Shown here in pieces: positions 5,582 through 62,318 of a DNA stretch of 64,000 nucleotides; the stretch's first letter is position 1; every line of letters starts with the position of its first letter. Under the pieces are notes generated by a model. It saw only the letters and a program-made list of their open reading frames with translations, was not told where the DNA came from and searched no databases. Source of the stretch: Limisphaerales bacterium (GTDB lineage Bacteria > Verrucomicrobiota > Verrucomicrobiia > Limisphaerales > JAYTXL01); assembly GCA_046593035.1 (NCBI GenBank), contig JBKJSC010000097.1:44013-108012 (forward strand), in the 5' to 3' direction. Position numbers and translations under genes: made by a program.

Positions 5582-7132
5582 TTATCGGGGTTGGGCCTTG
5601 AGGACGATCTCCACCTGCAAACCGGATGGACTGCGATTCTTGGCGGTGACGGTTCCCTGACAGGCTTCCACGCACGTCTTCACGATGGCCAGTCCGAGTC
5701 CAGTGCCGCCGGTGTCGCGGCTGCGAGATTGTTCCAACCGGAAAAAAGGATCGAAGATTTGGCCCATCGTTTCCTCCGGCACGCCGGGGCCGCAGTCCGC
5801 CACCGTGAGAGTGATGCGTCCGTCCTGCGAAGTGGCGGAAACCGTGATCGGTCCTGCCTGGCCCGCGTACCGGAGGGCGTTGCGCACCAAATTAGCCAGC
5901 GCCCGCGACAACAGTTCCGGTTCGGCCTGCGCCTGCAATGCCTCGTCGATTTGGATTTCGATGCGAGTCGCATCGGCGGCTTCGCGCGCGACGACGCGAC
6001 GCGCGAGATCGGCCAGATTGACCGGCTCCAGTTTGATTTCTTTTTGCTGCAAGCCCGCCTTGGAAAAGGAGAGGAGTTCGTTCACCAGGCCGGACATGTG
6101 CTGCACCTCTTCGCGCACGTCTTCGACATAGGCTTTCTGGCTGGCGTCGGCTCGTTGTTCGAGGATGCCCAGCGCCACTTGGATGCGCGCGATGGGGGAG
6201 CAAAGTTCGTGAGCGATATCGCCGAGAAAACGTTTCTGTCCGCTGACAAATCCCGCCAGCCGCATGGCCATGCGGTTGACGGCCTGTCCGAGACGGCCCA
6301 GCTCATCCCGGCGGCCGGCTTCGACGCGCGCCTCGAAGCGGCCTTCTGAAATCTGCTCGGTGGCGTGCGTCAATTGTGACAAGGAACGCGTGATGCCGCG
6401 CACCAGCGGAACCCAAAACAACACCGAGACAAACACCACGCCCAGCCCGACGCCCACCCACGGCAGGAAATCAAAGAACAAACCGCCGCCGCGGATGGAA
6501 TTGGACACGGCGATCAAAGTCACCGGAATTGGCCGCTGCTGTTCGCGATCCAAAACCGGAACGCGGACGAACACCCAATAACGGCTTGGGCTGGACGTGT
6601 GCAGCATGAACCTGGCTCGCTGGCCGAAGCCCGGCGATCCCGGCGGCTGCGTTTGGGGCGGGCGGTTGGGGCGGGATTCCTCCGGTGGCCTGCGGCGTCC
6701 GCGTTCGTCATCGGCTTCACCGTTAGGCGGTGGCCGGCTCGAGCGGGGCTCCTGGGGTGGCCCGGGCTGGCGCTCGGGCTGCCACATCGGCCCGCGGCGT
6801 TCGCCGAACTTGGACTGGACTTCTGGAGGCAACACAATGGAATCGCCAGCCGCTTGCACACCGTCGTTGCGGAAAAGAAAAAACTGCACCTGGTACGCGC
6901 TGCTGAAACGTTCCAAGATGGCGCTCCAGCTGGCCTTCGGCGCGGCGTTTAATTCGAAGGAGATGACCTCGCTCACCGCTTGAATGCGATCCCCCGCCTG
7001 GCCCATGAGCAGCGAATCCAGACCGAGGTGAAACTGGATTTTCAGGAAGGCAAAAAAAACGACTGCCAGGAAAACCAGGTTCAGGAAGAACCAAAGCAAA
7101 ATTCGGGCGTAAAGCGGAAAACGGATTTTCAT
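5582..7132 (-). CDS. sensor histidine kinase (CpxA-like: 2 TM, HAMP, HisKA, HATPase_c) with a proline-rich periplasmic insert
   Basis: H-box FLGDIAHELCSPI, N/G boxes (LVRNALRYAG, DCGPGVP, GTGLGLAIV), and HAMP after TM2. It ends 5 nt from the response-regulator gene. Confidence 0.9.
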   Translation of the reverse strand: MKIRFPLYARILLWFFLNLVFLAVVFFAFLKIQFHLGLDSLLMGQAGDRIQAVSEVISFELNAAPKASWSAILERFSSAYQVQFFLFRNDGVQAAGDSIVLPPEVQSKFGERRGPMWQPERQPGPPQEPRSSRPPPNGEADDERGRRRPPEESRPNRPPQTQPPGSPGFGQRARFMLHTSSPSRYWVFVRVPVLDREQQRPIPVTLIAVSNSIRGGGLFFDFLPWVGVGLGVVFVSVLFWVPLVRGITRSLSQLTHATEQISEGRFEARVEAGRRDELGRLGQAVNRMAMRLAGFVSGQKRFLGDIAHELCSPIARIQVALGILEQRADASQKAYVEDVREEVQHMSGLVNELLSFSKAGLQQKEIKLEPVNLADLARRVVAREAADATRIEIQIDEALQAQAEPELLSRALANLVRNALRYAGQAGPITVSATSQDGRITLTVADCGPGVPEETMGQIFDPFFRLEQSRSRDTGGTGLGLAIVKTCVEACQGTVTAKNRSPSGLQVEIVLKAQPR

Positions 7133-7136
7133 CGGC

Positions 7137-7895
7137 TCAAGGGTAATCGTCGTCGGGATTGATCAACAGGTAGCCAGCGGCGCGCACGGTGCGAATGAAG
7201 CGTGGCGTTTTGGGATCGTCGCCCAGCTTCTTGCGCAACGCCGAGATATGCACGTCAATCGAGCGGTCGAAGACGTCGTAGTTCCGGTCACGGATTTCAT
7301 CAAGGAGTTGCTCGCGCGATTTGACGCGGCCTTTCGCGCGGGCCAGCGAGGCGAGCAAGTCAAACTCCACCGGCGTCAATACGAGCGGTTGGTCGCCAAG
7401 GATCGCCGTGTGGGCAGCAGTATTGACGCGCAAGGAACCAATGATGATTTCGGGAGCGGGCTTGTCCCCGCCGTCGGCGGCGGTGGCGGCGGCGCGGCGG
7501 ATCACAGCGCGCAGCCGGGCGAGCAGTTCGCGCGTGGAAAAAGTTTTTGGCAGATAATCATCCGCGCCAATCTCCAGGCCGACAATGCGGTCGGATTCCT
7601 CGCCCCGCGAAGTGAGCATCAGCACGGGCACGTTGGACTTGTGCCGGATTTGTTTGAGCACTTCGAAGCCGTCCATGCCCGGCATCATCACGTCGAGCAA
7701 CACGGCTTGATAACTCCCGCCCGCCAACTTTTCCAAACCTTCCGGGCCGGAGTGAACGCTCGTGACTTCGTAGCCCATCGGCTCCAGATAATCCTTGATG
7801 AGCCGGCACAACTTGCGGTCGTCATCAATCATCAGCAGCCGGGTGCAGGCGTTCGAACCGGCTGGCATTTCATTCGATTGATGGATGTTCGGCAT
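7137..7895 (-). CDS. OmpR/PhoB-family response regulator (CpxR-like)
   Basis: Receiver domain (LLMIDDD...VLLDVMMPGMDGF...LMLTSRG) plus winged-helix C-terminus (LTPVEFDLL...IRTVRAAGY). Confidence 0.9.
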   Translation of the reverse strand: MPNIHQSNEMPAGSNACTRLLMIDDDRKLCRLIKDYLEPMGYEVTSVHSGPEGLEKLAGGSYQAVLLDVMMPGMDGFEVLKQIRHKSNVPVLMLTSRGEESDRIVGLEIGADDYLPKTFSTRELLARLRAVIRRAAATAADGGDKPAPEIIIGSLRVNTAAHTAILGDQPLVLTPVEFDLLASLARAKGRVKSREQLLDEIRDRNYDVFDRSIDVHISALRKKLGDDPKTPRFIRTVRAAGYLLINPDDDYP

Positions 7896-8020
7896 GTTTG
7901 TTTCGTCGCGTCGGTCGCAGAAATTACCTTTCCCCAGCGCGAAAAGCTTTATCTTTTACACTCCCTTAACAATTTTCCCGCTGTATCCACACAAAGGCTT
8001 AACGTAGCCGGTGTTTATTT

Positions 8021-8299
8021 ATGGAAGATCAAATGCGTGATTTACCAAAAATTTACGAAGCCATGAAAACGCCGGTGCCGGAAGCCGGGGAACTCTGCGC
8101 CTTGCTCGACCATTCGTTGGTGACGGGTAGCAATGCGCGTGCTTTCATGGAGCTGTTCGCCCGTCAAGACAGCCAGTTTCAAGAATACATCGAACTCGCC
8201 CTTGCCAAAGCAGACCACTCATGCGAATCGTCGGCGCAATATTCCAAAACCGCAAACCCGGTGCCATCTCCCACGACTGTTTCAACCCTCGAACCATGA
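8021..8299 (+). CDS. hypothetical small protein (92 aa)
   Basis: ORF with a plausible helical sequence. Its TGA (8297-8299) overlaps the ATG (8296-8298) of the next gene as ATGA. I recognise no homology. Confidence 0.3.
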   Translation: MEDQMRDLPKIYEAMKTPVPEAGELCALLDHSLVTGSNARAFMELFARQDSQFQEYIELALAKADHSCESSAQYSKTANPVPSPTTVSTLEP

Positions 8300-9645
8300 A
8301 AATGCTCCCTCGCTTCGTCCGCCTCGGCTGGCTCGCCGCACTGAGCGGCCACGTCCTGCTTGCCGGTGATTGGCCGCGCTTTCGCGGCGCGGACGGATCA
8401 GGTGTCGCCGCCGACGTGACAGCGCCCGTGACGTGGAGCGACACGCAAGGTGTGAAATGGAAAACACCTTTACCCGGCCCCGGTTCGTCGAGTCCGATCA
8501 TTCGCGGCGACCGCGTGTTCGTGACGTGCTACTCGGGTTATGGGGATAGCGCCAGCGGTTCGTCCAGCCCAGAAAACCTCCAACGTCACCTGGTTTGCAT
8601 CTCGCGGAAGGATGGCAAGATTCTTTGGTCACAAGCCGTGAAGGCAACGCTGCCGGAGGATTCATATAGCGGCTTCATCGCGGAACACGGCTACGCCAGC
8701 AACACTCCGGTGATCGACGCCGAACGTGTCTATGCCTTCTTCGGCAAAACCGGTGTGGTGGCGTTCGACCACGAGGGCAAACAGCTCTGGCAAGTCAACG
8801 TGGGCAAGGATTCGAGCAATCGTCGCTGGGGTTCCGGTTCGAGCCTGATTCTTTACAAAGACTTCGTCATCGTGACCGCGGCGGAAGAAAGCCGCTCCAT
8901 TCGCGCGCTCGACAAACGTACCGGCAAGGAAGTTTGGAAAGCCGCCGCCGACACTCTGGAGTTGACGTACGGCACGCCCTCGCTCATCGAAACCGCCGGC
9001 GGCCAAGCCGAGCTGGTGATCGCCGTGCCTTCCGAGGTGTGGAGTTTGAATCCGGACACCGGCAAACTCCGCTGGTATGCGGAGACGTCGCTCACCGGCA
9101 ACGTCGGCCCAAGCGTGGTCGTGGCGGACGGAATCGTATATGCCACGGGTGGTTTTCCGGGCACGGGCAGCGTCGCGGTGCGCGCGGGCGGCAAGGGCGA
9201 TGTCACGAAGACCCATGTGGTCTGGTCCAGCAACAACGGCTCCTACATTCCTTCGCCGGTGGTGCATCAGGGACGCCTCCATTACGTAAATGACCAGGGC
9301 TTCGCCGTTTGTCTCGACGCCAAGACGGGCAGCCTAGTTTACAAGGAACGTCTGCCGGGCGCGGCGAGTGGCGGTGGTGGTTTTGGGGCGAAACCATTTT
9401 ACGCTTCCGACGTGCTCGCCAACGGAAACCTTTACGCCGTGAGCCGGCGCAACGGCACGTTCGTCATCGCCGCCACGCCGGAGTTCAAGCTCGTCGCCCA
9501 AAACAAACTCGCCGCCGATGGCAGCGACTTCAACGCGACACCCGCCCTCAGCGGCAACCAGATTTTCCTCCGCTCGAACCGTTTCCTCTACTGCATCGAA
9601 GCCGATGCGGGCGGCCGCCGCGGGCAGGAAAAAGCAGGCAACTAA
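8296..9645 (+). CDS. PQQ-like beta-propeller repeat protein (BamB/YxaL-like), secreted
   Basis: Track ORF 8221-9645; the internal ATG at 8296 gives signal peptide MKMLPRFVRLGWLAALSGHVLLAGDWPRFRG. Repeated ...G.L.A.D..TGK..W motifs are typical of PQQ_2/PQQ_3 propellers. Confidence 0.8.
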   Translation: MKMLPRFVRLGWLAALSGHVLLAGDWPRFRGADGSGVAADVTAPVTWSDTQGVKWKTPLPGPGSSSPIIRGDRVFVTCYSGYGDSASGSSSPENLQRHLVCISRKDGKILWSQAVKATLPEDSYSGFIAEHGYASNTPVIDAERVYAFFGKTGVVAFDHEGKQLWQVNVGKDSSNRRWGSGSSLILYKDFVIVTAAEESRSIRALDKRTGKEVWKAAADTLELTYGTPSLIETAGGQAELVIAVPSEVWSLNPDTGKLRWYAETSLTGNVGPSVVVADGIVYATGGFPGTGSVAVRAGGKGDVTKTHVVWSSNNGSYIPSPVVHQGRLHYVNDQGFAVCLDAKTGSLVYKERLPGAASGGGGFGAKPFYASDVLANGNLYAVSRRNGTFVIAATPEFKLVAQNKLAADGSDFNATPALSGNQIFLRSNRFLYCIEADAGGRRGQEKAGN

Positions 9646-9653
9646 AACATCCC

Positions 9654-10406
9654 ATGAAAACACTCACACAACTCACGATGGCCGGTGCGCTCGGCGTAGC
9701 GCTGCTGGCCAATTCAGTCAGCGCCCAAGCTCCGCCCGACGGCAAACGCCCCGGCGGCAATCGTCCCGACGGTGCGCCTCCGGGAGGCGGTCAGCCCGGC
9801 GGTTTCCGTGGCGGCCCCGGTGGTCCCGGTGGTCCCGGCGGCGGAGATCAAGTGCTCCGCGAACTCAACTTGACGGACGCGCAACAGGGCAAGGTGGACG
9901 CGCTCCGGCAGGCGCAGCAGGAAAGGATGAAGGCGTTAAACGACGACTTCACAGCGAAATTGAAAGGCATCCTCAACGAGGAGCAATTCAAGAAATACAG
10001 CGAGGCTCAAAGCCGGGGCGGACGTCAGGGCGGCCCGGGCGGCCAAGGTGGTCCCGGTGGACCGGGCGGACAGCGCGGCGGCTTCAATCCCTTGGAACAA
10101 ATCGCCAAGGATCTCAACCTGACCGCTGAACAGCAGCCGAAGTTCGACGCGGCTCGCCAATCCATGATGGAAAAGAGCCAGGCGCTCTTCCAAAAAGTTC
10201 AGTCGGGCGAACTCGACCGTGAAAGCATGAGGGGCGAAATGTCCAAGGTGCGGGACGGCCTGTTGAAGGAGTTGAAGGGCTTCCTGAACAACGAACAATA
10301 CCAGAAAGTCGATGAGGCCATGAAGCGCGGTCCCGGAGCGGGTGGCCCTCCCGGTGGTGGTCAACCCGGCGGCCAGCGCCCGGAAGGCAAGAAGCGCCCT
10401 GAGTAG
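9654..10406 (+). CDS. periplasmic LTXXQ-motif protein (Spy/CpxP family-like) with Gly/Pro-rich linkers, internally duplicated
   Basis: Track ORF 9309-10406 over-extends into the previous gene. The ATG at 9654 gives signal peptide MKTLTQLTMAGALGVALLANSVSAQA. There are two modules, LNLTDAQQGKVDAL... and LNLTAEQQPKFDAA..., each followed by L(N)xEQ(F/Y)xK and flanked by GGPGGPGG tracts. Confidence 0.75.
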   Translation: MKTLTQLTMAGALGVALLANSVSAQAPPDGKRPGGNRPDGAPPGGGQPGGFRGGPGGPGGPGGGDQVLRELNLTDAQQGKVDALRQAQQERMKALNDDFTAKLKGILNEEQFKKYSEAQSRGGRQGGPGGQGGPGGPGGQRGGFNPLEQIAKDLNLTAEQQPKFDAARQSMMEKSQALFQKVQSGELDRESMRGEMSKVRDGLLKELKGFLNNEQYQKVDEAMKRGPGAGGPPGGGQPGGQRPEGKKRPE

Positions 10407-56390: not shown

Positions 56391-56765
56391 ATGAAAACCC
56401 TTTTCACGGTTGGCCTGCTGCTCGCGCTCGCGTCGGCCGGATGCACCACCAAGAGCAAGGCTTTGGCGCAATCGCGCGGGGCGTTCATCGCGGGCCAGCA
56501 ACAGGGGTTCGCACAAGCGCAGGTACTGGCACCAGCCACGTCGGTCACGATCTTGGGTGACGTGCGCAATCGCACGGTGGAATGGGTCGAGGACTTGACG
56601 CTCACGCAGGCGATTGTGACCGCTGAATATCTTCATCCCCGCGATCCCAGCTTGATCACCATCACCCGGCAGGGCCGGAAATACGAAGTCAACCCGAAGC
56701 GATTGCTCAAAGGTTTGGAGGATCCGTATCTGGAACCGGGCGACGTGGTGGAACTACACCGGTAA
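56391..56765 (+). CDS. small lipoprotein with SLBB-like (soluble-ligand-binding beta-grasp) C-terminus
   Basis: Track ORF 56277-56765; the ATG at 56391 gives the MKTLFTVGLLLALASAGC lipobox. ...VTILGDVRN..VEW.EDLTLTQAI..A......GDVVEL resembles polysaccharide-export SLBB domains. Confidence 0.5.
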   Translation: MKTLFTVGLLLALASAGCTTKSKALAQSRGAFIAGQQQGFAQAQVLAPATSVTILGDVRNRTVEWVEDLTLTQAIVTAEYLHPRDPSLITITRQGRKYEVNPKRLLKGLEDPYLEPGDVVELHR

Positions 56766-58354
56766 TGGCGCGCGTTGTCGCAGGAACGGCAAACCTCACA
56801 ATAATTATGAACCAGAAACTTGAACCGTTCCGCGCTGAAAACCTGTCCGAACAGCAAGACGACCCCCTCACCCGCCCTTCGGGCACCCTCTCCCCCACTG
56901 GGGGAGAGGGATGGGGTGAGGGGGAAAGCTTGGATGCGAGTATCCCATCCTTATTCCGATCAGTTATCACGCGACGGCGCGCGCTCGGTTCACTGGCGGT
57001 GGCTTGTGGCGCTGCGGTGGCTTTCGACACCTTTGCAGCCGCTACTGGCAAAGGTTATCGTTTGGCGACATTCTCCGCTGACGTGACGCCGCCGTTGGGA
57101 CATCCGCTCATGGGCGGCGGCATTGCTCATGCGTCCGTCGTGGTCGATCCACTTTTCGCAAAAGGCCTGGTTCTGCTGGGCTTCGACGCGCCGCTCGTGT
57201 TGGTGTCGGTGGACTGGTGCGAGATTCGCAACGACGCCTATGATCGCTGGCGCGCGTTGCTGGCCGAGGCCGCCGGGACCACGCCGGAGCGCGTGCTGGT
57301 GACGAGCACGCATGTGCATGACTCGCCGATCGCCGATCTGGAGGCCGAGCGCATTCTGAAACAACACAAGGCTACCGGCAGCATTTGCATGTTGGAATTT
57401 CATGAACAGGCCGTGCGTCGCGTCGCCGCCGCGTTGCGGGACAACCTCGGGAAAGCGCAGCGCATTTCCCACATCGGCACCGGTCAGGCGAAGGTTTCCC
57501 AAGTGGCGTCCAACCGGCGCTACCTCGGGCCCGACGGCAAACCCGCGTTTGACCGGGGCAGCGCCACGCGCAATGCGGCGCTCCGAGAATTGCCGGAAGG
57601 CACCATTGATCCGTGGCTGAAAACGCTCAGTTTTTGGGACGGAGATCGCGCGGTGGCTGCGGTGAATGCTTACGCCACGCACCCGATGAGTTATTATGGC
57701 AAGGGCGGTGTCTCGGATGATTTTGTCGGGCTGGCGCGTCGCCGTCGGATGGCGGATGACCCCAAGGTGTTTCAAATTTATGTCTCCGGTTGCAGCGGCA
57801 ACGTCACGGCGGGCAAGTTCAACGACGGCTCGCCGGAGAATCGCGCCGTGCTCGCGGAGCGCATGTACCAGGCGATGTCCGCCGCGTGGAAAGCAACGCA
57901 ACGCCGGCCGATCAAGACCTTTGATTTTCGCGTCGTGCCCTTGCGGCTGGAGCCGCGCAATTCACCGGGCTTGACCGTGGAGGATTTGACCAAGCGGCTG
58001 ACCACCGATCCCCGGCCGTTCGGACAATGCCTCGCCGCGCTGGGCTTGAGCTGGCGGAAGCGCGCGGACGCCGGCGGCAAGATTGATTTGCCCGTGCTCG
58101 ATTTTGGATTCGCGCAGTTGCTGTTGCTGCCGGGTGAATCGTATGTGGAATATCAACTCCTCGCCCAACAGTTGCGCCCGGATTCCTTTGTAATGGTGAT
58201 GGGCTACGGCGAATCGGCCACCGGCTACATCCCGACCGATCAGGCCTTTGCGGAAGACGACACGAATCTGCGCGACTGGTGCTGGGTCGCGCCCGGCTCC
58301 GAAGCCGCGATGGCGGCGGCATTGAAAGCGGCGTTGAAACCGTCGCAGCGTTAG
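56765..58354 (+). CDS. Tat-signal protein, neutral-ceramidase-N-terminal-like hydrolase fold (hypothetical)
   Basis: SVITRRRALGSLAVACGAAVA twin-arginine signal. DVTPPLGHPLMGG...DPLFAKGLVL......LVSVDW...VLVTSTHVHDSP resembles the ceramidase_alk N-domain. The start is ambiguous. ATG 56765 overlaps the previous stop (TAATG), but codons about 33-54 are a palindromic repeat. An in-frame TTG at 56930 would place the repeat in the 5-prime UTR. Confidence 0.55.
   Translation: MARVVAGTANLTIIMNQKLEPFRAENLSEQQDDPLTRPSGTLSPTGGEGWGEGESLDASIPSLFRSVITRRRALGSLAVACGAAVAFDTFAAATGKGYRLATFSADVTPPLGHPLMGGGIAHASVVVDPLFAKGLVLLGFDAPLVLVSVDWCEIRNDAYDRWRALLAEAAGTTPERVLVTSTHVHDSPIADLEAERILKQHKATGSICMLEFHEQAVRRVAAALRDNLGKAQRISHIGTGQAKVSQVASNRRYLGPDGKPAFDRGSATRNAALRELPEGTIDPWLKTLSFWDGDRAVAAVNAYATHPMSYYGKGGVSDDFVGLARRRRMADDPKVFQIYVSGCSGNVTAGKFNDGSPENRAVLAERMYQAMSAAWKATQRRPIKTFDFRVVPLRLEPRNSPGLTVEDLTKRLTTDPRPFGQCLAALGLSWRKRADAGGKIDLPVLDFGFAQLLLLPGESYVEYQLLAQQLRPDSFVMVMGYGESATGYIPTDQAFAEDDTNLRDWCWVAPGSEAAMAAALKAALKPSQR
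56863..56924. repeat. nested perfect palindrome repeat
   Basis: The outer pair is CCCCCTCACCC (56863-56873) / GGGTGAGGGGG. The inner pair is CCCTCTCCCCC-ACT-GGGGGAGAGGG (56886-56910, perfect 11 bp). It is related to 28170-28205. Confidence 0.65.
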
Positions 58355-58734
58355 GCCATACTCTTGGACTGACCGTGTAACTCTCGTGCATGGATAACAA
58401 ACTCAAGGAACGACAAGCGATGCCCGCATTTCGCGCAACACTTGTCCTTGGTGATGACCGGCTCAACACTGCGAATAAACTGCCATCCGCGCGCCATGCC
58501 AACACTCCGACCAAGTGGAAGCCCAAAATACGTCGGATCCCATGAGCTGAAGTCGGCCTGGCAAAAATCGCACAGGACAAGTGAAAGGTCGCCGAAGACG
58601 CGATACTCAGCGTACGTGTGCTCGCCATCGCGTGCCTCGTCAATCTCGCCGGTGGCACTTCCACACTCCATGCAAGGAGCGACTTCACGAATCTCCAGTT
58701 GCTCGTAACACAGTGGACAGTGAGTGGCTTGCAT
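58351..58734 (-). CDS. hypothetical Cys-rich zinc-ribbon protein (127 aa)
   Basis: CPLC...CMEC...CDFC...CAKC, i.e. four CxxC pairs. It overlaps the convergent gene end by 4 nt. No family recognised. Confidence 0.5.
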   Translation of the reverse strand: MQATHCPLCYEQLEIREVAPCMECGSATGEIDEARDGEHTYAEYRVFGDLSLVLCDFCQADFSSWDPTYFGLPLGRSVGMARGWQFIRSVEPVITKDKCCAKCGHRLSFLEFVIHARELHGQSKSMA

Positions 58735-58754
58735 GACGAACCGAGCGATGTGGC

Positions 58755-58886
58755 CTATCGTATAAACCCAACCGGCTTGGGGAACAGGGCTTCGATTTCC
58801 GCCAAGTCTTTCGGGTCGGCGGGGTGCGGGGTTTCCGGTTGCCCGTTGAGCGTCACGATTTCGGATTCGCGCTGGGTTGATTTCAT
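58755..58886 (-). CDS. 43-aa mini-protein duplicating the C-terminal tail of the FecR-domain protein
   Basis: Not in the track (under 60 aa). My translation is MKSTQRESEIVTLNGQPETPHPADPKDLAEIEALFPKPVGFIR*. The ATG lies 1 nt after the TGA of the upstream ORF. Against the FecR-gene tail, 7 of 9 differing codons are synonymous. Confidence 0.55.
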   Translation of the reverse strand: MKSTQRESEIVTLNGQPETPHPADPKDLAEIEALFPKPVGFIR

Positions 58887-58887
58887 A

Positions 58888-59082
58888 TCACGCCTTGCGG
58901 CGTTTGGTTTGAAGGTTCACGACCGGATGGCCGGAATGTTTCTGACGCTCGCGCGCCTCGGCGAAAAGGCGGTCAATGCTGTGGCCGCGCGCGGCGGAAA
59001 GCGCATCCTTGGCACGCCACACTTCGCGCAGCACCAAATCCTTTTCCACGTAAAGGTTGGCTGTCTTCGTTGTCTTGCTCAT
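58888..59082 (-). CDS. hypothetical small protein (64 aa)
   Basis: MSKTTKTANLYVEKDLVLREVWRAKDALSAARGHSIDRLFAEARERQKHSGHPVVNLQTKRRKA. It lies between the two copies of the duplicated FecR 3-prime end. No family name known to me. Confidence 0.45.
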   Translation of the reverse strand: MSKTTKTANLYVEKDLVLREVWRAKDALSAARGHSIDRLFAEARERQKHSGHPVVNLQTKRRKA

Positions 59083-59130
59083 AGGATTCTTGCAGCAGTT
59101 CTTCCGGCGTTCACGTCGAAATGAATTGGG

Positions 59131-60171
59131 CTATCGGATAAACCCGACGGGCTTGGGGAACAGGGCTTCGATTTCGGCCAGGTCTTTCGGGTCGGCGGGG
59201 TGCGGGTCTGCCGGCTGCCCGTTGAGCGTTACGCTGGCGGCTTCACCGAGCTTGATCGTCACGGTGCGGGACGCGGAGGTGTTCCCATTGAACGCCACCG
59301 AACCGTCGCCCACGGTGGACGTGGTGGTCTTTTGCGCGTTGGAATCAACGATGAACTTGGTGCCGAGAATGCCCGTGGTGGCCGCCGGGGTTTTCACGCT
59401 GAACTTGGATTTCATCGCGCCGGGCTTGATGCTCGCGATGATGCGACCTTCATCGACTTGCAGGGAAACCTGTCCGTCGGCGAGCCGGAGGTGCAGCCGG
59501 GATTGCGGGCGCAAACTGACCTGACCGGCAGTACCGAGATTGAGCATCAGTTCCGAGTTTTCCTTCGTCATGATTTCCGAGCCGATGACGAGCGTGAGGT
59601 TGGTTTTGGAAACGGTTTCCCAGGCGTTGAACGGTGAGGGGCGATGGCGGACTTCGCCTTTGAATTGCGCGACCATCGGCGCATTGGATTTCAGACTTTG
59701 AAAACCAAGGTTCGCGGCCACCACGAGAATCCCGACCAGCACCAGCGCGCCGATCCAGGCGAACAGACTGCCGCGATAGGTGCCGCGAAACAGGATCATC
59801 GTCAGCGGCACGACCAACAGCAGCAACACGCCCAGCCCGGCGACGAGCAGCAGCAGCAATTTGGAAATGCTGGGCAGCGAGGGCGCAACATAGACCTCCA
59901 TCGCCGCCAGGCCAAACAGCAGCAGCGCGGCCCCGAGAACGGCGGCGATGCCGGCGACTCCGCCGGTGTTGTTGCGGGCCTGACAGCGCGATTGGATGAG
60001 CCGGAGCGTGGGCGGGATCACGACGAGCAACACTGCGGCGGCGGCCCAGAGTTGCAGCGTGGAACCGGCGTTGAGCAAGGCGGACTGCAAACAGCCCAAG
60101 GCCTTTTCGACTAGTGGATGGGTGAGCATAATGTGATGTGTTGACGTGATGTTTCGTGAGCCACCACTCAA
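59131..60171 (-). CDS. FecR-domain protein with N-terminal multi-TM region
   Basis: About 4 TM helices, then the FecR-like beta region (..GEVRHRP....W......L..G..I.T...S...L.L......L.P.S.L.L......L.V..G......K.......F.V.TP.A..GILGTKF.V). An alternative ATG is at 60129. Confidence 0.8.
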   Translation of the reverse strand: MSGGSRNITSTHHIMLTHPLVEKALGCLQSALLNAGSTLQLWAAAAVLLVVIPPTLRLIQSRCQARNNTGGVAGIAAVLGAALLLFGLAAMEVYVAPSLPSISKLLLLLVAGLGVLLLLVVPLTMILFRGTYRGSLFAWIGALVLVGILVVAANLGFQSLKSNAPMVAQFKGEVRHRPSPFNAWETVSKTNLTLVIGSEIMTKENSELMLNLGTAGQVSLRPQSRLHLRLADGQVSLQVDEGRIIASIKPGAMKSKFSVKTPAATTGILGTKFIVDSNAQKTTTSTVGDGSVAFNGNTSASRTVTIKLGEAASVTLNGQPADPHPADPKDLAEIEALFPKPVGFIR

Positions 60172-60206
60172 AAGTCAAATTGTAAAATGGGTGATGCCGT
60201 ACTCGC

Positions 60207-62318
60207 TCAAGCGGACGGCGGCGGTTGGGAACTGGGACGAATCACAGTGGTCTCCAACGTTGCATTGGCCCAGGGGACTTCAAAGATTTTCACCGGTTCT
60301 TGAATGCCTTGCACCAAGGTCGGCGGCAATTCGCGGCAGGTAGCGGCCAGGGCGGGATCATCGCGCAGCAAGTCCTGATACGTCGTTTCGCCGATGATGA
60401 TTTGGTCGCGCTCGGCGACGCCCTCCAGACGGCTGGCCAGATTCACCTCCCGGCCAAAGACGGTGTAATTCAAGATATGCGTTTCTGAACCCATCAGGCC
60501 CACCGTGGCCATGCCGGTGTTGATGCCGGTGCCCAGCGTGAGGAGGGAGAGCATCGGCAACTTCGGCTGGCTATCAGTACGGTTTTCCTGTTCACGCCGA
60601 CGGTTTTCCGCTGCGCGTTCGAGGTTCAATGCTTGAATCGCCCGGTGTGCTTCTATGGCGGCTTTGACGGTGCTTACCGCGTGGCGCTCGTTCGGAACGG
60701 GCGCGCCCCAAAACGCCATGACGGAATCGCCGATGTATTTGTCGAGCGTGCCGCCGTGTTGCTTCACTTGGTCGGCGACGATGCTGAGGTACAGATTGAC
60801 CGTGCCAAGCACATCGCCGGCTTGGGCGTTCATGCACGCCGCCGCCGCCGGGCCGGTCAATTGGCGCGTACGCACCTGTTCCAGCGCCTCCAGATGGCGG
60901 GTGTTGGTCAATTCCGTGAAGCCGCGAATGTCGGCGAAGCAGATCGTCACCGGGCGATTCTCGCCGCCGAGCGACAGGTGCGGGGCGCGGAGCAATTCAT
61001 CCACAACTTCCGGAGCGACGATCTTCGCAAACACCGCCCGGACGCGCCGCCGTTCGTTCTGCTCGAAGATCACGCGATAAGTCACCAGGCAAACGTGGGT
61101 CAGCACCAGTGCCCCCACCGGCATGACCACCGGAAGCCAGTAGCGTTGCGTTGTGTACACGAACGCGGCCAACGCAACGTACACCGCCGCGAGTCCCACG
61201 ATCCAGCCCGAAGCGCGGAGCACGCGCGTTTGCTGGGTGACGAACGCGGACACACCGGCGAGCAACAGGATCAATCCCAGCGCCATGCTTACCGGCGCGC
61301 GCCGCACGAATCGTCCGGTCAGCACCGAGTTCGCCACGTTCCATTGTTTGCTCAAGAGATACGTGTCCTTGGCCAGCGGCGTGGTGCCGATGTCGGAAAC
61401 ATTGTTGCCCGAAACGATGGAGCCGATCACCACGAGCTTGTCGCGCCAGACGGTTTCATTCGTGATCGTTCCACCTGCCGCGCGCTGCCGGGCCTGTTGC
61501 AACAAGTCGGAAAAACTTTCGGTGGCGATGCGCCCGTCATTCCACGCCAGGCTCCAGTCGATGTAGAAAAAACCATCCTGGTCCGCCGGGATGACCCGCT
61601 CCACGCCGCCGGGGCCGCGCAAAACGATGCGGCCCGGTTCAACCGTCGCGTGCGCCAGGTCCAGCCCCAGATCGCGCGCGGCCAGCACGATGGCCAGTTG
61701 CCAGATGCGCCCATGCACCGGGTCATCGCGAAAGGCGCGCGCCCGGCGCAACACGCCGTCGGAATCCGCGTCGCTGACGATGTGTGCGGTGGCGGCGGCG
61801 TTGGTGCGAAACAGGTCGGCGGGCATGAGCGCGTGCCAAGTGCGGTTGGTGGTTTCGCCCATCGCCGCCAGCACCACGTTGCCGGTTTCCCGAAGTTGCC
61901 GCGCGAAATATTCATCCGATTCCAACCGGCCTTCGCCGGGCATTTCGACGGCGGTGGCGGGATTGGACGGATGCAACTCACCGAAGCGAATATCGAACCC
62001 CACCGCCTTCGCGCCTTGCGCCTTCAACTCCCGAATCACCCGCCCGTGAAGCTGGCGCGGCCACGGCCAGTTAACCTGATGCTCGCGGTTGACGGCGGTG
62101 AGGCTGTCATCGTCGATGAACACCGCACCGAGATTGGGGGCCACTGGCGCGGTGGCATCGAAGGCGAGGCGCACGCGCCAGTCGTAGGTGATCCATTCCA
62201 AGCGCTCGAACAGATTGAAACCGGGGGAAACCGTCGGCAGGACTTGGAGCAAGCCCGTCAGCGACACGACCGCGACGGCAATCACCATCGGGACGAACTT
62301 CGCTGGGACTGGTTTCAC
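60207..62318 (-). CDS. CHASE2-domain class III adenylate/guanylate cyclase
   Basis: N-terminal TM plus a CHASE2 extracytoplasmic domain (LERLEWITYDWRVR...VFIDDDSL...), 3 TM, and a cyclase core (ICFADIRGFTEL...DKYIGDSVMAFWGAP...GINTGMATVGLMGS....NYTVFGREVNLASRLE). Confidence 0.9.
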   Translation of the reverse strand: MKPVPAKFVPMVIAVAVVSLTGLLQVLPTVSPGFNLFERLEWITYDWRVRLAFDATAPVAPNLGAVFIDDDSLTAVNREHQVNWPWPRQLHGRVIRELKAQGAKAVGFDIRFGELHPSNPATAVEMPGEGRLESDEYFARQLRETGNVVLAAMGETTNRTWHALMPADLFRTNAAATAHIVSDADSDGVLRRARAFRDDPVHGRIWQLAIVLAARDLGLDLAHATVEPGRIVLRGPGGVERVIPADQDGFFYIDWSLAWNDGRIATESFSDLLQQARQRAAGGTITNETVWRDKLVVIGSIVSGNNVSDIGTTPLAKDTYLLSKQWNVANSVLTGRFVRRAPVSMALGLILLLAGVSAFVTQQTRVLRASGWIVGLAAVYVALAAFVYTTQRYWLPVVMPVGALVLTHVCLVTYRVIFEQNERRRVRAVFAKIVAPEVVDELLRAPHLSLGGENRPVTICFADIRGFTELTNTRHLEALEQVRTRQLTGPAAAACMNAQAGDVLGTVNLYLSIVADQVKQHGGTLDKYIGDSVMAFWGAPVPNERHAVSTVKAAIEAHRAIQALNLERAAENRRREQENRTDSQPKLPMLSLLTLGTGINTGMATVGLMGSETHILNYTVFGREVNLASRLEGVAERDQIIIGETTYQDLLRDDPALAATCRELPPTLVQGIQEPVKIFEVPWANATLETTVIRPSSQPPPSA

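Follow-up and report, generated by a model that had tools for sequence, protein, structure and literature searches.

In this study, we examined a 43-codon ORF (the mini-ORF) downstream of a FecR-domain gene in a 64,000-nt stretch of DNA (the window) from a Limisphaerales bacterium, and we consider it most probably (about 70%) a rearrangement scar, in which the first 10 codons of an antitoxin gene have been fused in frame to a displaced 3′ end of the FecR gene. The window holds two copies of this 3′ end, copy A within the mini-ORF and copy B at the end of the FecR gene itself, and judging by the sequences compared below the silent differences between them can be explained without a working mini-protein. 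The features of the locus are listed in Table 1.

Table 1. Features at the FecR locus, in window coordinates and ordered from the cyclase gene downstream
Feature	Position	Strand	Basis or remark
CHASE2 adenylate/guanylate cyclase gene, upstream of the FecR gene	60207..62318	-	Pfam CHASE2 3.5e-34, Guanylate_cyc 5.7e-17
FecR-domain membrane protein gene, 332 aa from ATG 60129	59131..60129	-	Pfam PF04773; four orthologues
Copy B, last 33 codons plus TAG of the FecR gene (VTLNGQPADPHPADPKDLAEIEALFPKPVGFIR)	59131..59232	-	Repeat and codon comparison
Copy B 3′ flank (cccaattcatttcgacgtga)	59111..59130	-	Homologous to the flank past the FecR stop in L004
PIN-like toxin gene 3′ remnant, last 14 codons (TPEELLQESYEQDN)	59069..59110	-	tblastn with the L017 PIN-like protein
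64-aa gene, large and highly conserved Verrucomicrobiota small-protein family	58888..59082	-	364 clusters, 70-90% identity
Mini-ORF, 43 aa (MKSTQRESEI plus 33 tail residues)	58755-58886	-	ORF list; equals 58857-58886 plus copy A
Antitoxin gene start, first 10 codons MKSTQRESEI (Phd/YefM- or RelB-like)	58857..58886	-	Supplies the mini-ORF ATG
Junction microhomology CGTGACGC, 8 nt	58850..58857	-	Common to the antitoxin gene (GAAATCGTGACGCGCAAAGGCAAACCC) and the FecR tail start (AGCGTGACGCTCAACGGGCAACCG)
Copy A, displaced FecR 3′ end, 33 codons plus TAG	58755..58856	-	Repeat and L001 collinearity
127-aa cysteine-rich (zinc-ribbon-like) gene	58351..58734	-	Start 20 nt past the copy A stop

A repeat search returned direct repeats at 58751-58868 and 59127-59244 (118 nt, 87% identity, spacing 376). 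The same arrangement was present in a second assembly made with another assembler (Logan contig L015, run SRR31159421), which is 100% identical to the window over 5022 nt. The direct repeats 376 bp apart noted in the preliminary description were confirmed. The well-conserved core of each copy is 102 nt, that is, 33 codons plus the stop and not 34 codons as first counted, and the two cores share 90% nucleotide identity. Codon-by-codon comparison reproduced the 10 nucleotide differences given earlier: seven codons are changed synonymously (copy A/copy B: GTG/GTA, CAA/CAG, TTG/CTG, GCG/GCC, CCG/CCC, GTT/GTC, and ATA/ATC), and the other three nucleotides replace two adjacent residues (ET in copy A, AD in copy B). 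The final 24 residues (PHPADPKDLAEIEALFPKPVGFIR) are the same in both copies despite five silent changes within them. The repeat alignment thus supports the view that the mini-ORF carries a paralogous copy of the FecR tail. No FecR-body sequence is found upstream of copy A, and the motif VT(L/I)N(G)(Q/K)P contains the start of the repeat, which does not coincide with any obvious module boundary. A longer repeat, reaching upstream of codon 11, was considered and rejected, since the 45 nt preceding each copy have no similarity above that of shuffled sequences.

The mini-ORF is intact, and its ATG lies 1 nt past the TGA of the 64-aa ORF (TGAtATG) and 6 nt downstream of a weak AAGG; from this frame and start context, it may well be translated. 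Its product has neither a signal peptide nor a hydrophobic segment. Each copy uses one codon that is rare in the reference genes (copy A, ATA; copy B, GTA; 2% each), and codon usage does not discriminate between them. Searches of PDB, PADLOC, Pfam, and NCBIfam gave no match for the 64-aa, 127-aa, or 43-aa proteins. The sole Rfam match, MH_s36, is on the opposite strand with an E-value of 0.47, below the gathering score, and was rejected as a known RNA.

The ORF of the FecR gene extends to a TTG at 60171 (59131-60171), and gene callers start it at the ATG. The protein matches PF04773 with 46.5 bits (cut-off 24) and the NCBIfam FecR equivalog with 23.5 bits, against a cut-off of 385. Its hydropathy profile gives about four N-terminal hydrophobic helices, followed by the FecR domain and the conserved 24-aa tail. 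All four orthologues are 332 aa long, with 78-87% identity and a nearly invariant tail, and the tail is clade-specific, being confined to one 50%-identity cluster. No ECF sigma factor partner lies beside the gene, whose upstream neighbour is the CHASE2 cyclase gene, and the protein has no anti-sigma N-terminal domain, its membrane helices standing there instead. FecR domains beside CHASE2 sensors have been described as extracytoplasmic (PMC5192318), and by this family knowledge the C-terminus of the present protein is probably periplasmic. The positive-inside charge count was ambiguous, and the structure prediction (pLDDT 37 from a 5-sequence alignment) was unusable.

The two tails are separated by a 274-bp insert. 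Its first part, the copy B flank, is shared with the related locus L004, the BLAST alignment continuing 17 nt beyond the FecR stop codon; a terminator scan placed this flank within a weak terminator-like hairpin and T-run (59128-59145). The PIN-like remnant that follows is identical to the L017 PIN-like protein at all 14 residues (tblastn, E=1.8e-4), while L004 retains 40 codons of this gene (E=2e-17). As in intact modules, the remnant runs into the start of the 64-aa gene; elsewhere too this gene lies behind a PIN-like gene, with stop and start overlapping, and its dN/dS against L004 is 0.27. The first 30 nt of the mini-ORF match the starts of the antitoxin genes of L012, L013, L014, L016, and L017 at 22-23 of 30 positions, ungapped and start-aligned. 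Across 187 kb of loci, only five positions reached 21 or more of 30 matches, each of them the start of an antitoxin gene, and among shuffled queries none of 400 reached 23 and at most 0.3% reached 22. The module occurs in many Verrucomicrobiota and at unrelated loci, with a patchy distribution and in multiple copies (L008, L012 with two copies, L013, L014, L016, and L017), and the relatives' proteins gave Pfam matches below the cut-offs (PhdYeFM_antitox 27.3 bits against 29.8, RelB-like 25.7 against 27, PIN E=0.039). On these homologies, the 64-aa gene is a remnant of a mobile module made up of a Phd/YefM-like antitoxin gene, a PIN-like gene, and the 64-aa gene. The peptide MQVTRES, encoded after the 64-aa gene of L004, was tried as a second homologue of the mini-ORF start and discarded; it belongs to the ordinary spacer of the module and is homologous to the spacer of L016 and L017.

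The antitoxin fragment and copy A meet at the 8-nt microhomology. In the 21 nt beyond it, the antitoxin gene and the FecR tail are identical at 16 positions, in frame (VTRKGKP versus VTLNGQP). Because the antitoxin (..EIVTRKGKP) and FecR (..SVTLNGQP) coding sequences share CGTGACGC in the same reading frame, a join at this point is in frame and inherits the antitoxin ATG. The donor that such a join requires, a 64-aa gene stop directly followed by an antitoxin gene beginning MKSTQRESEIVTRKGKP, was not found, and an intact MKSTQRESEIVT antitoxin, sought with a degenerate DNA pattern, gave 0 matches in the JGI metagenomes.

Comparison with relatives revealed that the slot between the FecR gene and a convergent 529-aa gene is, by its gene content, variable in a small Verrucomicrobiota clade. 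In L001, the closest relative, the FecR tail runs directly into the 127-aa gene, giving an empty site with no mini-ORF; copy A and the DNA downstream of it are collinear with this region (92.5% over 864 nt), and the 20-nt spacing from the tail stop to the 127-aa gene is the same in both. In L002, a single tail is directly followed by the homologue of the 529-aa gene. In L004, the FecR tail is followed by the copy B-type flank, the module remnant, and the 64-aa gene, with no second tail. The downstream DNA of copy A is therefore of the L001 type and that of copy B of the L004 type. All three relatives have a single tail and no mini-ORF. The locus thus has what is expected of an orphan 3′ fragment: the 3′ end of the adjacent gene only, an empty site in a relative, an insert of foreign or mobile origin, and a junction at microhomology.

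These arrangements suggest two structural alleles, one (L001 type) in which the FecR tail would be followed by the 127-aa gene and another (L004 type, already decayed in that genome) in which it would be followed by the antitoxin, PIN-like, and 64-aa genes. The window would then represent the two alleles stacked: the FecR gene with tail B, the L004-type flank, 14 PIN-like codons, and the 64-aa gene, and after these the 10 antitoxin codons, tail A, the L001-type flank, and the 127-aa gene. The right-hand join probably formed by illegitimate or homeologous recombination at the 8-nt CGTGACGC. The likeliest route would be homology-facilitated illegitimate recombination, in which one side pairs homologously and the other is joined illegitimately, together with one or more internal deletions of the module. 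We infer the one-sided homologous anchor, like the order and number of the events and the identity of the resident copy, from the arrangement of the segments. The two tails would have diverged under purifying selection, each while it ended a functional FecR gene, and have been juxtaposed later. Such divergence as alleles would leave mainly silent differences and requires no selection on the free-standing ORF.

The preliminary description had taken the silent changes as evidence that both copies are translated and that the tail peptide itself is under purifying selection. A formal test supported the excess as statistically real: S=25, N=74, Sd=7, and Nd=3, giving dS=0.35, dN=0.042, and dN/dS=0.12 (Fisher p=0.002; Monte-Carlo p=0.003). 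Purifying selection on the tail holds for the tail as part of the FecR protein, given its near-invariance in the four orthologues. The further step to two translated and selected copies does not follow, as it is valid only if the copies diverged in place after duplication, and a pairwise dN/dS of 0.12 cannot be assigned to one branch. The dS of the window against L001 is 0.13 for copy A and 0.18 for copy B, both below the 0.35 between the copies; it is 0.32 for the C-terminal half of the FecR gene, 0.25 for the 127-aa gene, and 0.21 for the 529-aa gene. Orthologous genes of the window and L001 span 0.21-0.41, a range that includes the value for A against B; two functional FecR-tail alleles made neighbours would thus be expected to show such a silent excess. 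Against L001, there is no step in divergence at the 376-bp unit, either in sliding identity or in dS (gradient 0.51, 0.32, 0.25, 0.21).

At each A/B difference, one of the two states is that of L001, and at 6 of the 10 nucleotide differences both states are present among the orthologues. Only two changes are unique to copy A (GTT and ATA); both are silent, which is not significant (p about 0.07). An internal control is provided by L004, whose dead fragment MKSTQRRVG followed by a stop codon agrees with the MKSTQR of the window at 6/6 residues with four synonymous codon differences, indicating that silent-only divergence can be inherited from a functional past. Under neutrality at 0.1 or more substitutions per site, the probability that the ORF stays intact with at most two replacements is below 1%. 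Since an old free-standing state would thus reject neutrality, our explanation needs either a young fusion or tails from different lineages, and we infer that the fusion is recent and without function. This history is drawn from four related loci and few sites. A crossover pattern, in which the silent sites of L001 would match copy A in the 5′ half and copy B in the 3′ half, was post hoc and is broken by positions 25-26, and it was discounted.

Across 5.8 billion protein clusters and 1.84 billion representatives, a single genome carried the mini-ORF, so that an intact stand-alone ORF conserved in several diverged genomes was not seen. Searches with the tail and the mini-ORF in the same protein collections, the JGI metagenomes, and IMG/VR revealed no stand-alone tail gene elsewhere: none of the 506 pattern matches to the tail peptide in the JGI metagenomes or of the 63 in IMG/VR was confirmed, and a word-indexed search of the 5.8 billion proteins returned the mini-ORF itself only. 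An exhaustive phmmer search of the 1.84 billion representatives yielded the FecR cluster plus two spurious repeat proteins. These, a eukaryotic kinase-repeat protein and a Bacteroidota surface-repeat protein, have only VT(L/I)N.(Q/K)P..P in common with the query and were rejected. In these two weak matches, the motif is a strand-plus-proline-linker element of repeat proteins.

It had been proposed that the 43-aa product acts as a mimic or competitor of the FecR tail for a shared partner in the CHASE2-cyclase pathway. In this reading it would be a soluble tail copy, translated by coupling to the 64-aa gene and maintained by selection. The silent excess (dN/dS=0.12, p=0.002), the identity of the last 24 residues, the intact ORF with its TGAtATG arrangement, the silent nature of the changes unique to copy A, and the rejection of neutrality under an old in-place duplication are all in keeping with this proposal. 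However, the mini-ORF is absent from the closest relative and the others, its N-terminus is a fragment of an antitoxin gene joined at microhomology, and juxtaposed alleles predict the silent excess equally well. A product without a signal peptide or hydrophobic segment also fits poorly with FecR domains that are extracytoplasmic beside CHASE2 (PMC5192318). With one genome and such a product, we found no positive evidence for the mimic and consider it unlikely, as we do a selected mini-protein of any kind. A related idea, which we would rate as improbable, is that the chimeric ORF has been co-opted as a micro-protein newly born from a recombination scar, whose translation, coupled to that of the 64-aa gene, would supply a soluble, clade-specific FecR tail that modulates CHASE2-cyclase signalling. 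It is very improbable that the frame is kept open only to deliver ribosomes to the 127-aa gene, the peptide being irrelevant. Such a role would fit a 127-aa start that lies equally far behind the tail stop in the window and L001, and a mini-ORF start coupled to the 64-aa stop, but the arrangement is seen in a single genome and the role predicts no amino-acid constraint.

Two further explanations concern the origin of the arrangement. Direct repeats that flank a 274-bp insert of mobile origin, in a slot that varies between relatives, recall attL/attR-like duplications left by a site-specific cassette that targets the FecR 3′ end and brings a replacement tail. Nevertheless, no recombinase is encoded in the 376-bp unit, and the neighbours are housekeeping or signalling genes; the differences are spread across the whole repeat, with no identical core and longest identical runs of 25 and 26 nt; the left boundary is antitoxin-gene homology instead of an att core; and L004 has the cassette without the duplication. 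We therefore regard a site-specific cassette as highly unlikely. An assembly chimera of co-occurring L004-type and L001-type strains is conceivable for a metagenome-assembled genome when both structural alleles are present in related populations. It is, however, barely credible here, as the novel junction has just 8 nt in common with the alternative contexts, much less than the k-mers that assemblers use, and the NCBI contig (146 kb) and the Logan contig (6.2 kb) agree at 100%.

Taken as a rearrangement scar, the locus is a cautionary case: a significant silent excess between paralogues shows selection somewhere in their shared history, not that both copies are functional now, and copies juxtaposed by recombination between structural alleles would carry this signature with them. 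The locus also offers a fully dissected example of a toxin-antitoxin gene fused in frame to a signalling gene through 8 nt of microhomology, and it shows the convergent slot behind the FecR gene to be a hotspot where accessory and defence cargo collects in these Verrucomicrobiota. Were the fused ORF expressed, it would be a candidate for the de novo birth of a micro-protein.

C-terminal displacement that leaves orphaned 3′ fragments and is attributed to homology-facilitated illegitimate recombination is known from the rhs, CDI, and T6SS effector loci (Kirchberger et al., 2017, PMC5361080, citing Jackson et al., 2009; de Vries and Wackernagel, 2002; Meier and Wackernagel, 2003). As in those loci, incoming DNA would have paired with a conserved resident part, the old 3′ end would have been pushed downstream to survive as an orphan, the slot gathers accessory genes, and one join would be homologous while the other lies at microhomology. 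Unlike in those loci, the duplicated 3′ end is the conserved part and not a variable toxin tip, the FecR gene has no toxin/immunity logic, and the insert is only 274 bp of a decayed module. The module itself resembles type II toxin-antitoxin systems (Phd/YefM or RelB with PIN/VapC-like toxins) in that the relatives have a small antitoxin gene followed by an overlapping or closely spaced PIN-like gene. It differs from them in that the relatives' Pfam matches remain below the curated cut-offs, the 64-aa gene and often a further 44-aa gene are present as third and fourth members, and the window retains only 10 antitoxin and 14 PIN-like codons. The LysM-FecR/CHASE2 histidine-kinase operon likewise places a FecR gene beside a CHASE2 sensor gene (PMC5192318), and in the window the FecR-domain gene lies directly downstream of a CHASE2 signalling gene; the output domain here, however, is a class III cyclase, and the FecR protein has about four N-terminal membrane helices, no LysM, and a clade-specific 24-aa tail.

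The repeat search found one long direct repeat in this region, two 118-nt segments of 87% identity at a spacing of 376, with a well-conserved core of 33 codons and the TAG stop; the preliminary description gave the repeat accurately except that it counted 34 shared codons. The core copies, A in the 43-aa mini-ORF and B at the 3′ end of the FecR-domain gene, differ at 10 nt, comprising seven synonymous codon changes and the adjacent replacements ET/AD, and their final 24 residues are the same despite five silent changes. By the Nei-Gojobori method, Sd was 7 over 25 synonymous sites and Nd was 3 over 74 non-synonymous sites (dS = 0.35, dN = 0.042, dN/dS = 0.12; Fisher p = 0.002, Monte-Carlo p = 0.003), confirming that the silent excess is real.

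Features of the window and of the related locus L004
Feature	Coordinates	Strand	Remark
CHASE2 cyclase gene	60207-62318	-	first in minus-strand order
FecR-domain gene	59131-60129 or 60171	-	after CHASE2 cyclase gene
64-aa ORF	58888-59082	-	after FecR-domain gene
43-aa ORF (mini-ORF)	58755-58886	-	after 64-aa ORF
127-aa cysteine-rich ORF	58351-58734	-	after 43-aa ORF
529-aa gene	56765-58354	+	convergent, after 127-aa ORF
Direct repeat with copy A	58751-58868		
Direct repeat with copy B	59127-59244		
Terminator-like hairpin	59128-59145	-	weak; overlaps FecR stop codon
Mini-ORF junction 16-mer	58857-58872	-	
16-mer recurrence	58100-58115	-	one mismatch
L004 fragment MKSTQRRVG*	7021-7050		
L004 ATPase	7448-10069	-	slot equivalent to window 58351-59130

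The 127-aa protein has several CxxC pairs and no family assignment beyond weak double-zinc-ribbon matches; its gene was found only in the window and in L001, the closest related locus (dN/dS 0.17 between the two). The 529-aa gene is kept in all three related loci (L001, L002 and L004), although Pfam and NCBIfam gave nothing for its product at E up to 0.1. The hairpin after copy B consists of GGGTTTATCCGATAGCCC and then AATTCATTTC; the sequence after the FecR stop in L004 resembles this flank, and a T-run is absent after copy A, unlike after copy B. No Rfam family matched in the region.

Among 5.8 billion protein clusters, the FecR protein has only three relatives (87, 78 and 79% identity), all of 332 aa and all with the tail; the genomes that encode them are Verrucomicrobiota assembled from metagenomes of glacier-fed streams and from one in ENA. 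Since the tail is nearly invariant across these orthologues, it is under purifying selection as part of FecR; the earlier claim of selection on the tail peptide holds to this extent, but the selection is not assignable to the free-standing copy. The DNA 3′ of the tail is different in each of the four loci. In L002 the tail is followed directly by the 529-aa gene homologue, in L001 the 127-aa gene starts 20 nt past the FecR stop, and in L004 there is a decayed module including a 64-aa gene and then an 873-aa ATPase. This ATPase, of the AAA_13 type, scores E = 3e-242 against PDC-S06, a candidate defence family in PADLOC. With contents that differ in all four genomes, the slot after the FecR gene acts as an accessory/defence hotspot.

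The window has both the 64-aa and the 127-aa gene, each with its own tail copy ahead of it. Copy A and all DNA beyond it are collinear with the L001 tail and downstream DNA (92.5% over 864 nt), and the copy-B 3′ flank and 64-aa gene are collinear with L004. A second tail is absent in all three relatives. The stand-alone tail ORF was likewise confined to this one genome: an indexed protein search returned only the mini-ORF itself, exhaustive phmmer over 1.84 billion representatives gave, apart from the FecR cluster, just two repeat proteins of no relevance, and the tail peptide was not found in JGI metagenomes or IMG/VR.

The 64-aa protein is one of a large and highly conserved family in Verrucomicrobiota, comprising at least 364 clusters at 70-90% identity; Pfam, NCBIfam, PADLOC and PDB searches gave no match for it. 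Its gene almost always lies directly after a 148-161-aa PIN-like gene, with overlapping stop and start, often with a 66-aa Phd/YefM- or RelB-like antitoxin gene ahead (the antitoxin and PIN-like Pfam matches are under curated cut-offs) and at times with a 44-aa gene or tandem 57-63-aa paralogues on the 3′ side. Besides the window, such a gene is present at L008, L012, L013, L014, L016 and L017, and it may be a third component of a toxin-antitoxin module. The 14 codons before and overlapping its start in the window read TPEELLQESYEQDN, which matches the end of the L017 PIN-like protein residue for residue; in L004, 40 such codons are left. This remnant and the usual gene context identify the insert as a wrecked mobile toxin-antitoxin-like module.

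The first ten codons of the mini-ORF can be traced to the same module. When their 30 nt, ATGAAATCAACCCAGCGCGAATCCGAAATC, are set without gaps against the first bases of the antitoxin gene, ATGAAAGCAACCTTGCCCGAACTTGAAATC (MKATLPELEI), start codon on start codon, 22-23 of 30 positions are identical at five loci. In 187 kb of fetched DNA, just those five gene starts reach at least 21/30; none of 400 shuffled queries reached 23, and 0.3% reached 22. The antitoxin gene reads on as GTGACGCGCAAAGGCAAACCC (VTRKGKP) and the FecR tail opens with GTGACGCTCAACGGGCAACCG (VTLNGQP), and the two have in common the 8-mer CGTGACGC, 16 of the 21 following bases and the reading frame. The left edge of the repeat is thereby fully accounted for, as an illegitimate or homeologous join at microhomology that supplies the displaced tail with a start codon (ATG) and keeps its frame open. 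In L004, the dead 9-codon fragment MKSTQRRVG*, which follows the FecR stop and precedes the PIN-like remnant, probably represents this antitoxin start in its natural position, although its nucleotide match is borderline significant taken alone. The mini-ORF junction 16-mer, GCGCGAATCCGAAATC, recurs 757 nt downstream, antisense within the 529-aa gene and conserved in L001; the recurrence is probably chance, though rarer than expected.

The dN/dS test shows purifying selection somewhere on the path from copy A to copy B and says nothing on which part of it, so the earlier conclusion that both copies are translated and selected does not follow: the signal cannot be placed on copy A. The dS between the copies is on par with that between window and L001 orthologues (FecR C-terminal half 0.32, 127-aa gene 0.25, 529-aa gene 0.21, whole FecR body 0.41), and the single L001 tail is closer to each copy (dS 0.13 and 0.18) than the copies are to each other. 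At all 10 differing positions one state is that of L001, at six both states are seen among orthologues, and only two changes (GTT, ATA) are confined to copy A. Such levels and states are expected from two working FecR-tail alleles brought next to each other after diverging in separate lineages. An internal control is the dead fragment of L004: it has the same first six residues as the mini-ORF (6/6), and the four codons that differ among them do so silently.

If copy A had evolved neutrally as a free-standing ORF over at least 0.1 substitutions per site, an intact frame with at most two replacements would have had a chance below 1%. The alternatives are therefore a young fusion (or one made from alleles) and an ORF under selection. 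That the product is a mimic peptide kept by selection has a low probability. In its favour, the mini-ORF is intact, with a TGAtATG start arrangement and a weak AAGG upstream. However, it occurs in one genome only, opens with an antitoxin fragment, carries a tail copy whose first residues fall inside a strand-plus-linker motif and not at a module boundary, and has no export signal. In contrast, an extracytoplasmic location is reported for FecR domains next to CHASE2 sensors (PMC5192318); for this FecR protein, the topology judged by charge is ambiguous. The sequence data by themselves are compatible with both alternatives, but a young or allele-derived fusion fits all the structural evidence. 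Site-specific integration as the source of the repeats is unlikely, given that there is no recombinase, that the differences are scattered over the repeat and that in L004 the cassette is present with a single tail. Nor is an assembly chimera likely: the junction has only 8 nt in common with alternative contexts, and a Logan contig of the same organism (run SRR31159421), from a different assembler, is identical to the window over 5 kb.

Divergence from L001 (window 59600-62318 compared with L001 1-1500) rises to a dS of 0.51 in the FecR N-terminal half, against 0.21-0.32 in the C-terminal half and the 127-aa and 529-aa genes; the 3′ part of the CHASE2 cyclase gene aligns poorly (BLAST only 229 nt), making its nominal dS of 0.9 and dN of 0.54 unreliable. 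This unevenness suggests mosaic ancestry by recombination inside the operon. We propose that an L004-type chromosome recombined with L001-type DNA, with homologous pairing at the FecR gene or at the 127-aa/529-aa side and, on the other side, an illegitimate join at the shared 8-mer between the antitoxin start after the 64-aa gene and the FecR tail start. Later internal deletion, in one or more steps, would have taken out the antitoxin gene and the bulk of the PIN-like gene. The antitoxin start lies after the 64-aa gene here, whereas it usually lies before the PIN-like gene; such an order could arise where modules stand in tandem, as they do in L012 to L014.

Taken together, the mini-ORF is, with a probability of roughly 70%, the orphaned 3′ end of a gene joined to what is left of a toxin-antitoxin module, a rearrangement scar of a known kind. 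Its value is mainly as a caution against reading function into the pairwise dN/dS of neighbouring paralogous fragments. The proposed event corresponds to homology-facilitated illegitimate recombination, or ‘C-terminal displacement’, as reported at the effector loci of rhs and T6SS systems (PMC5361080).
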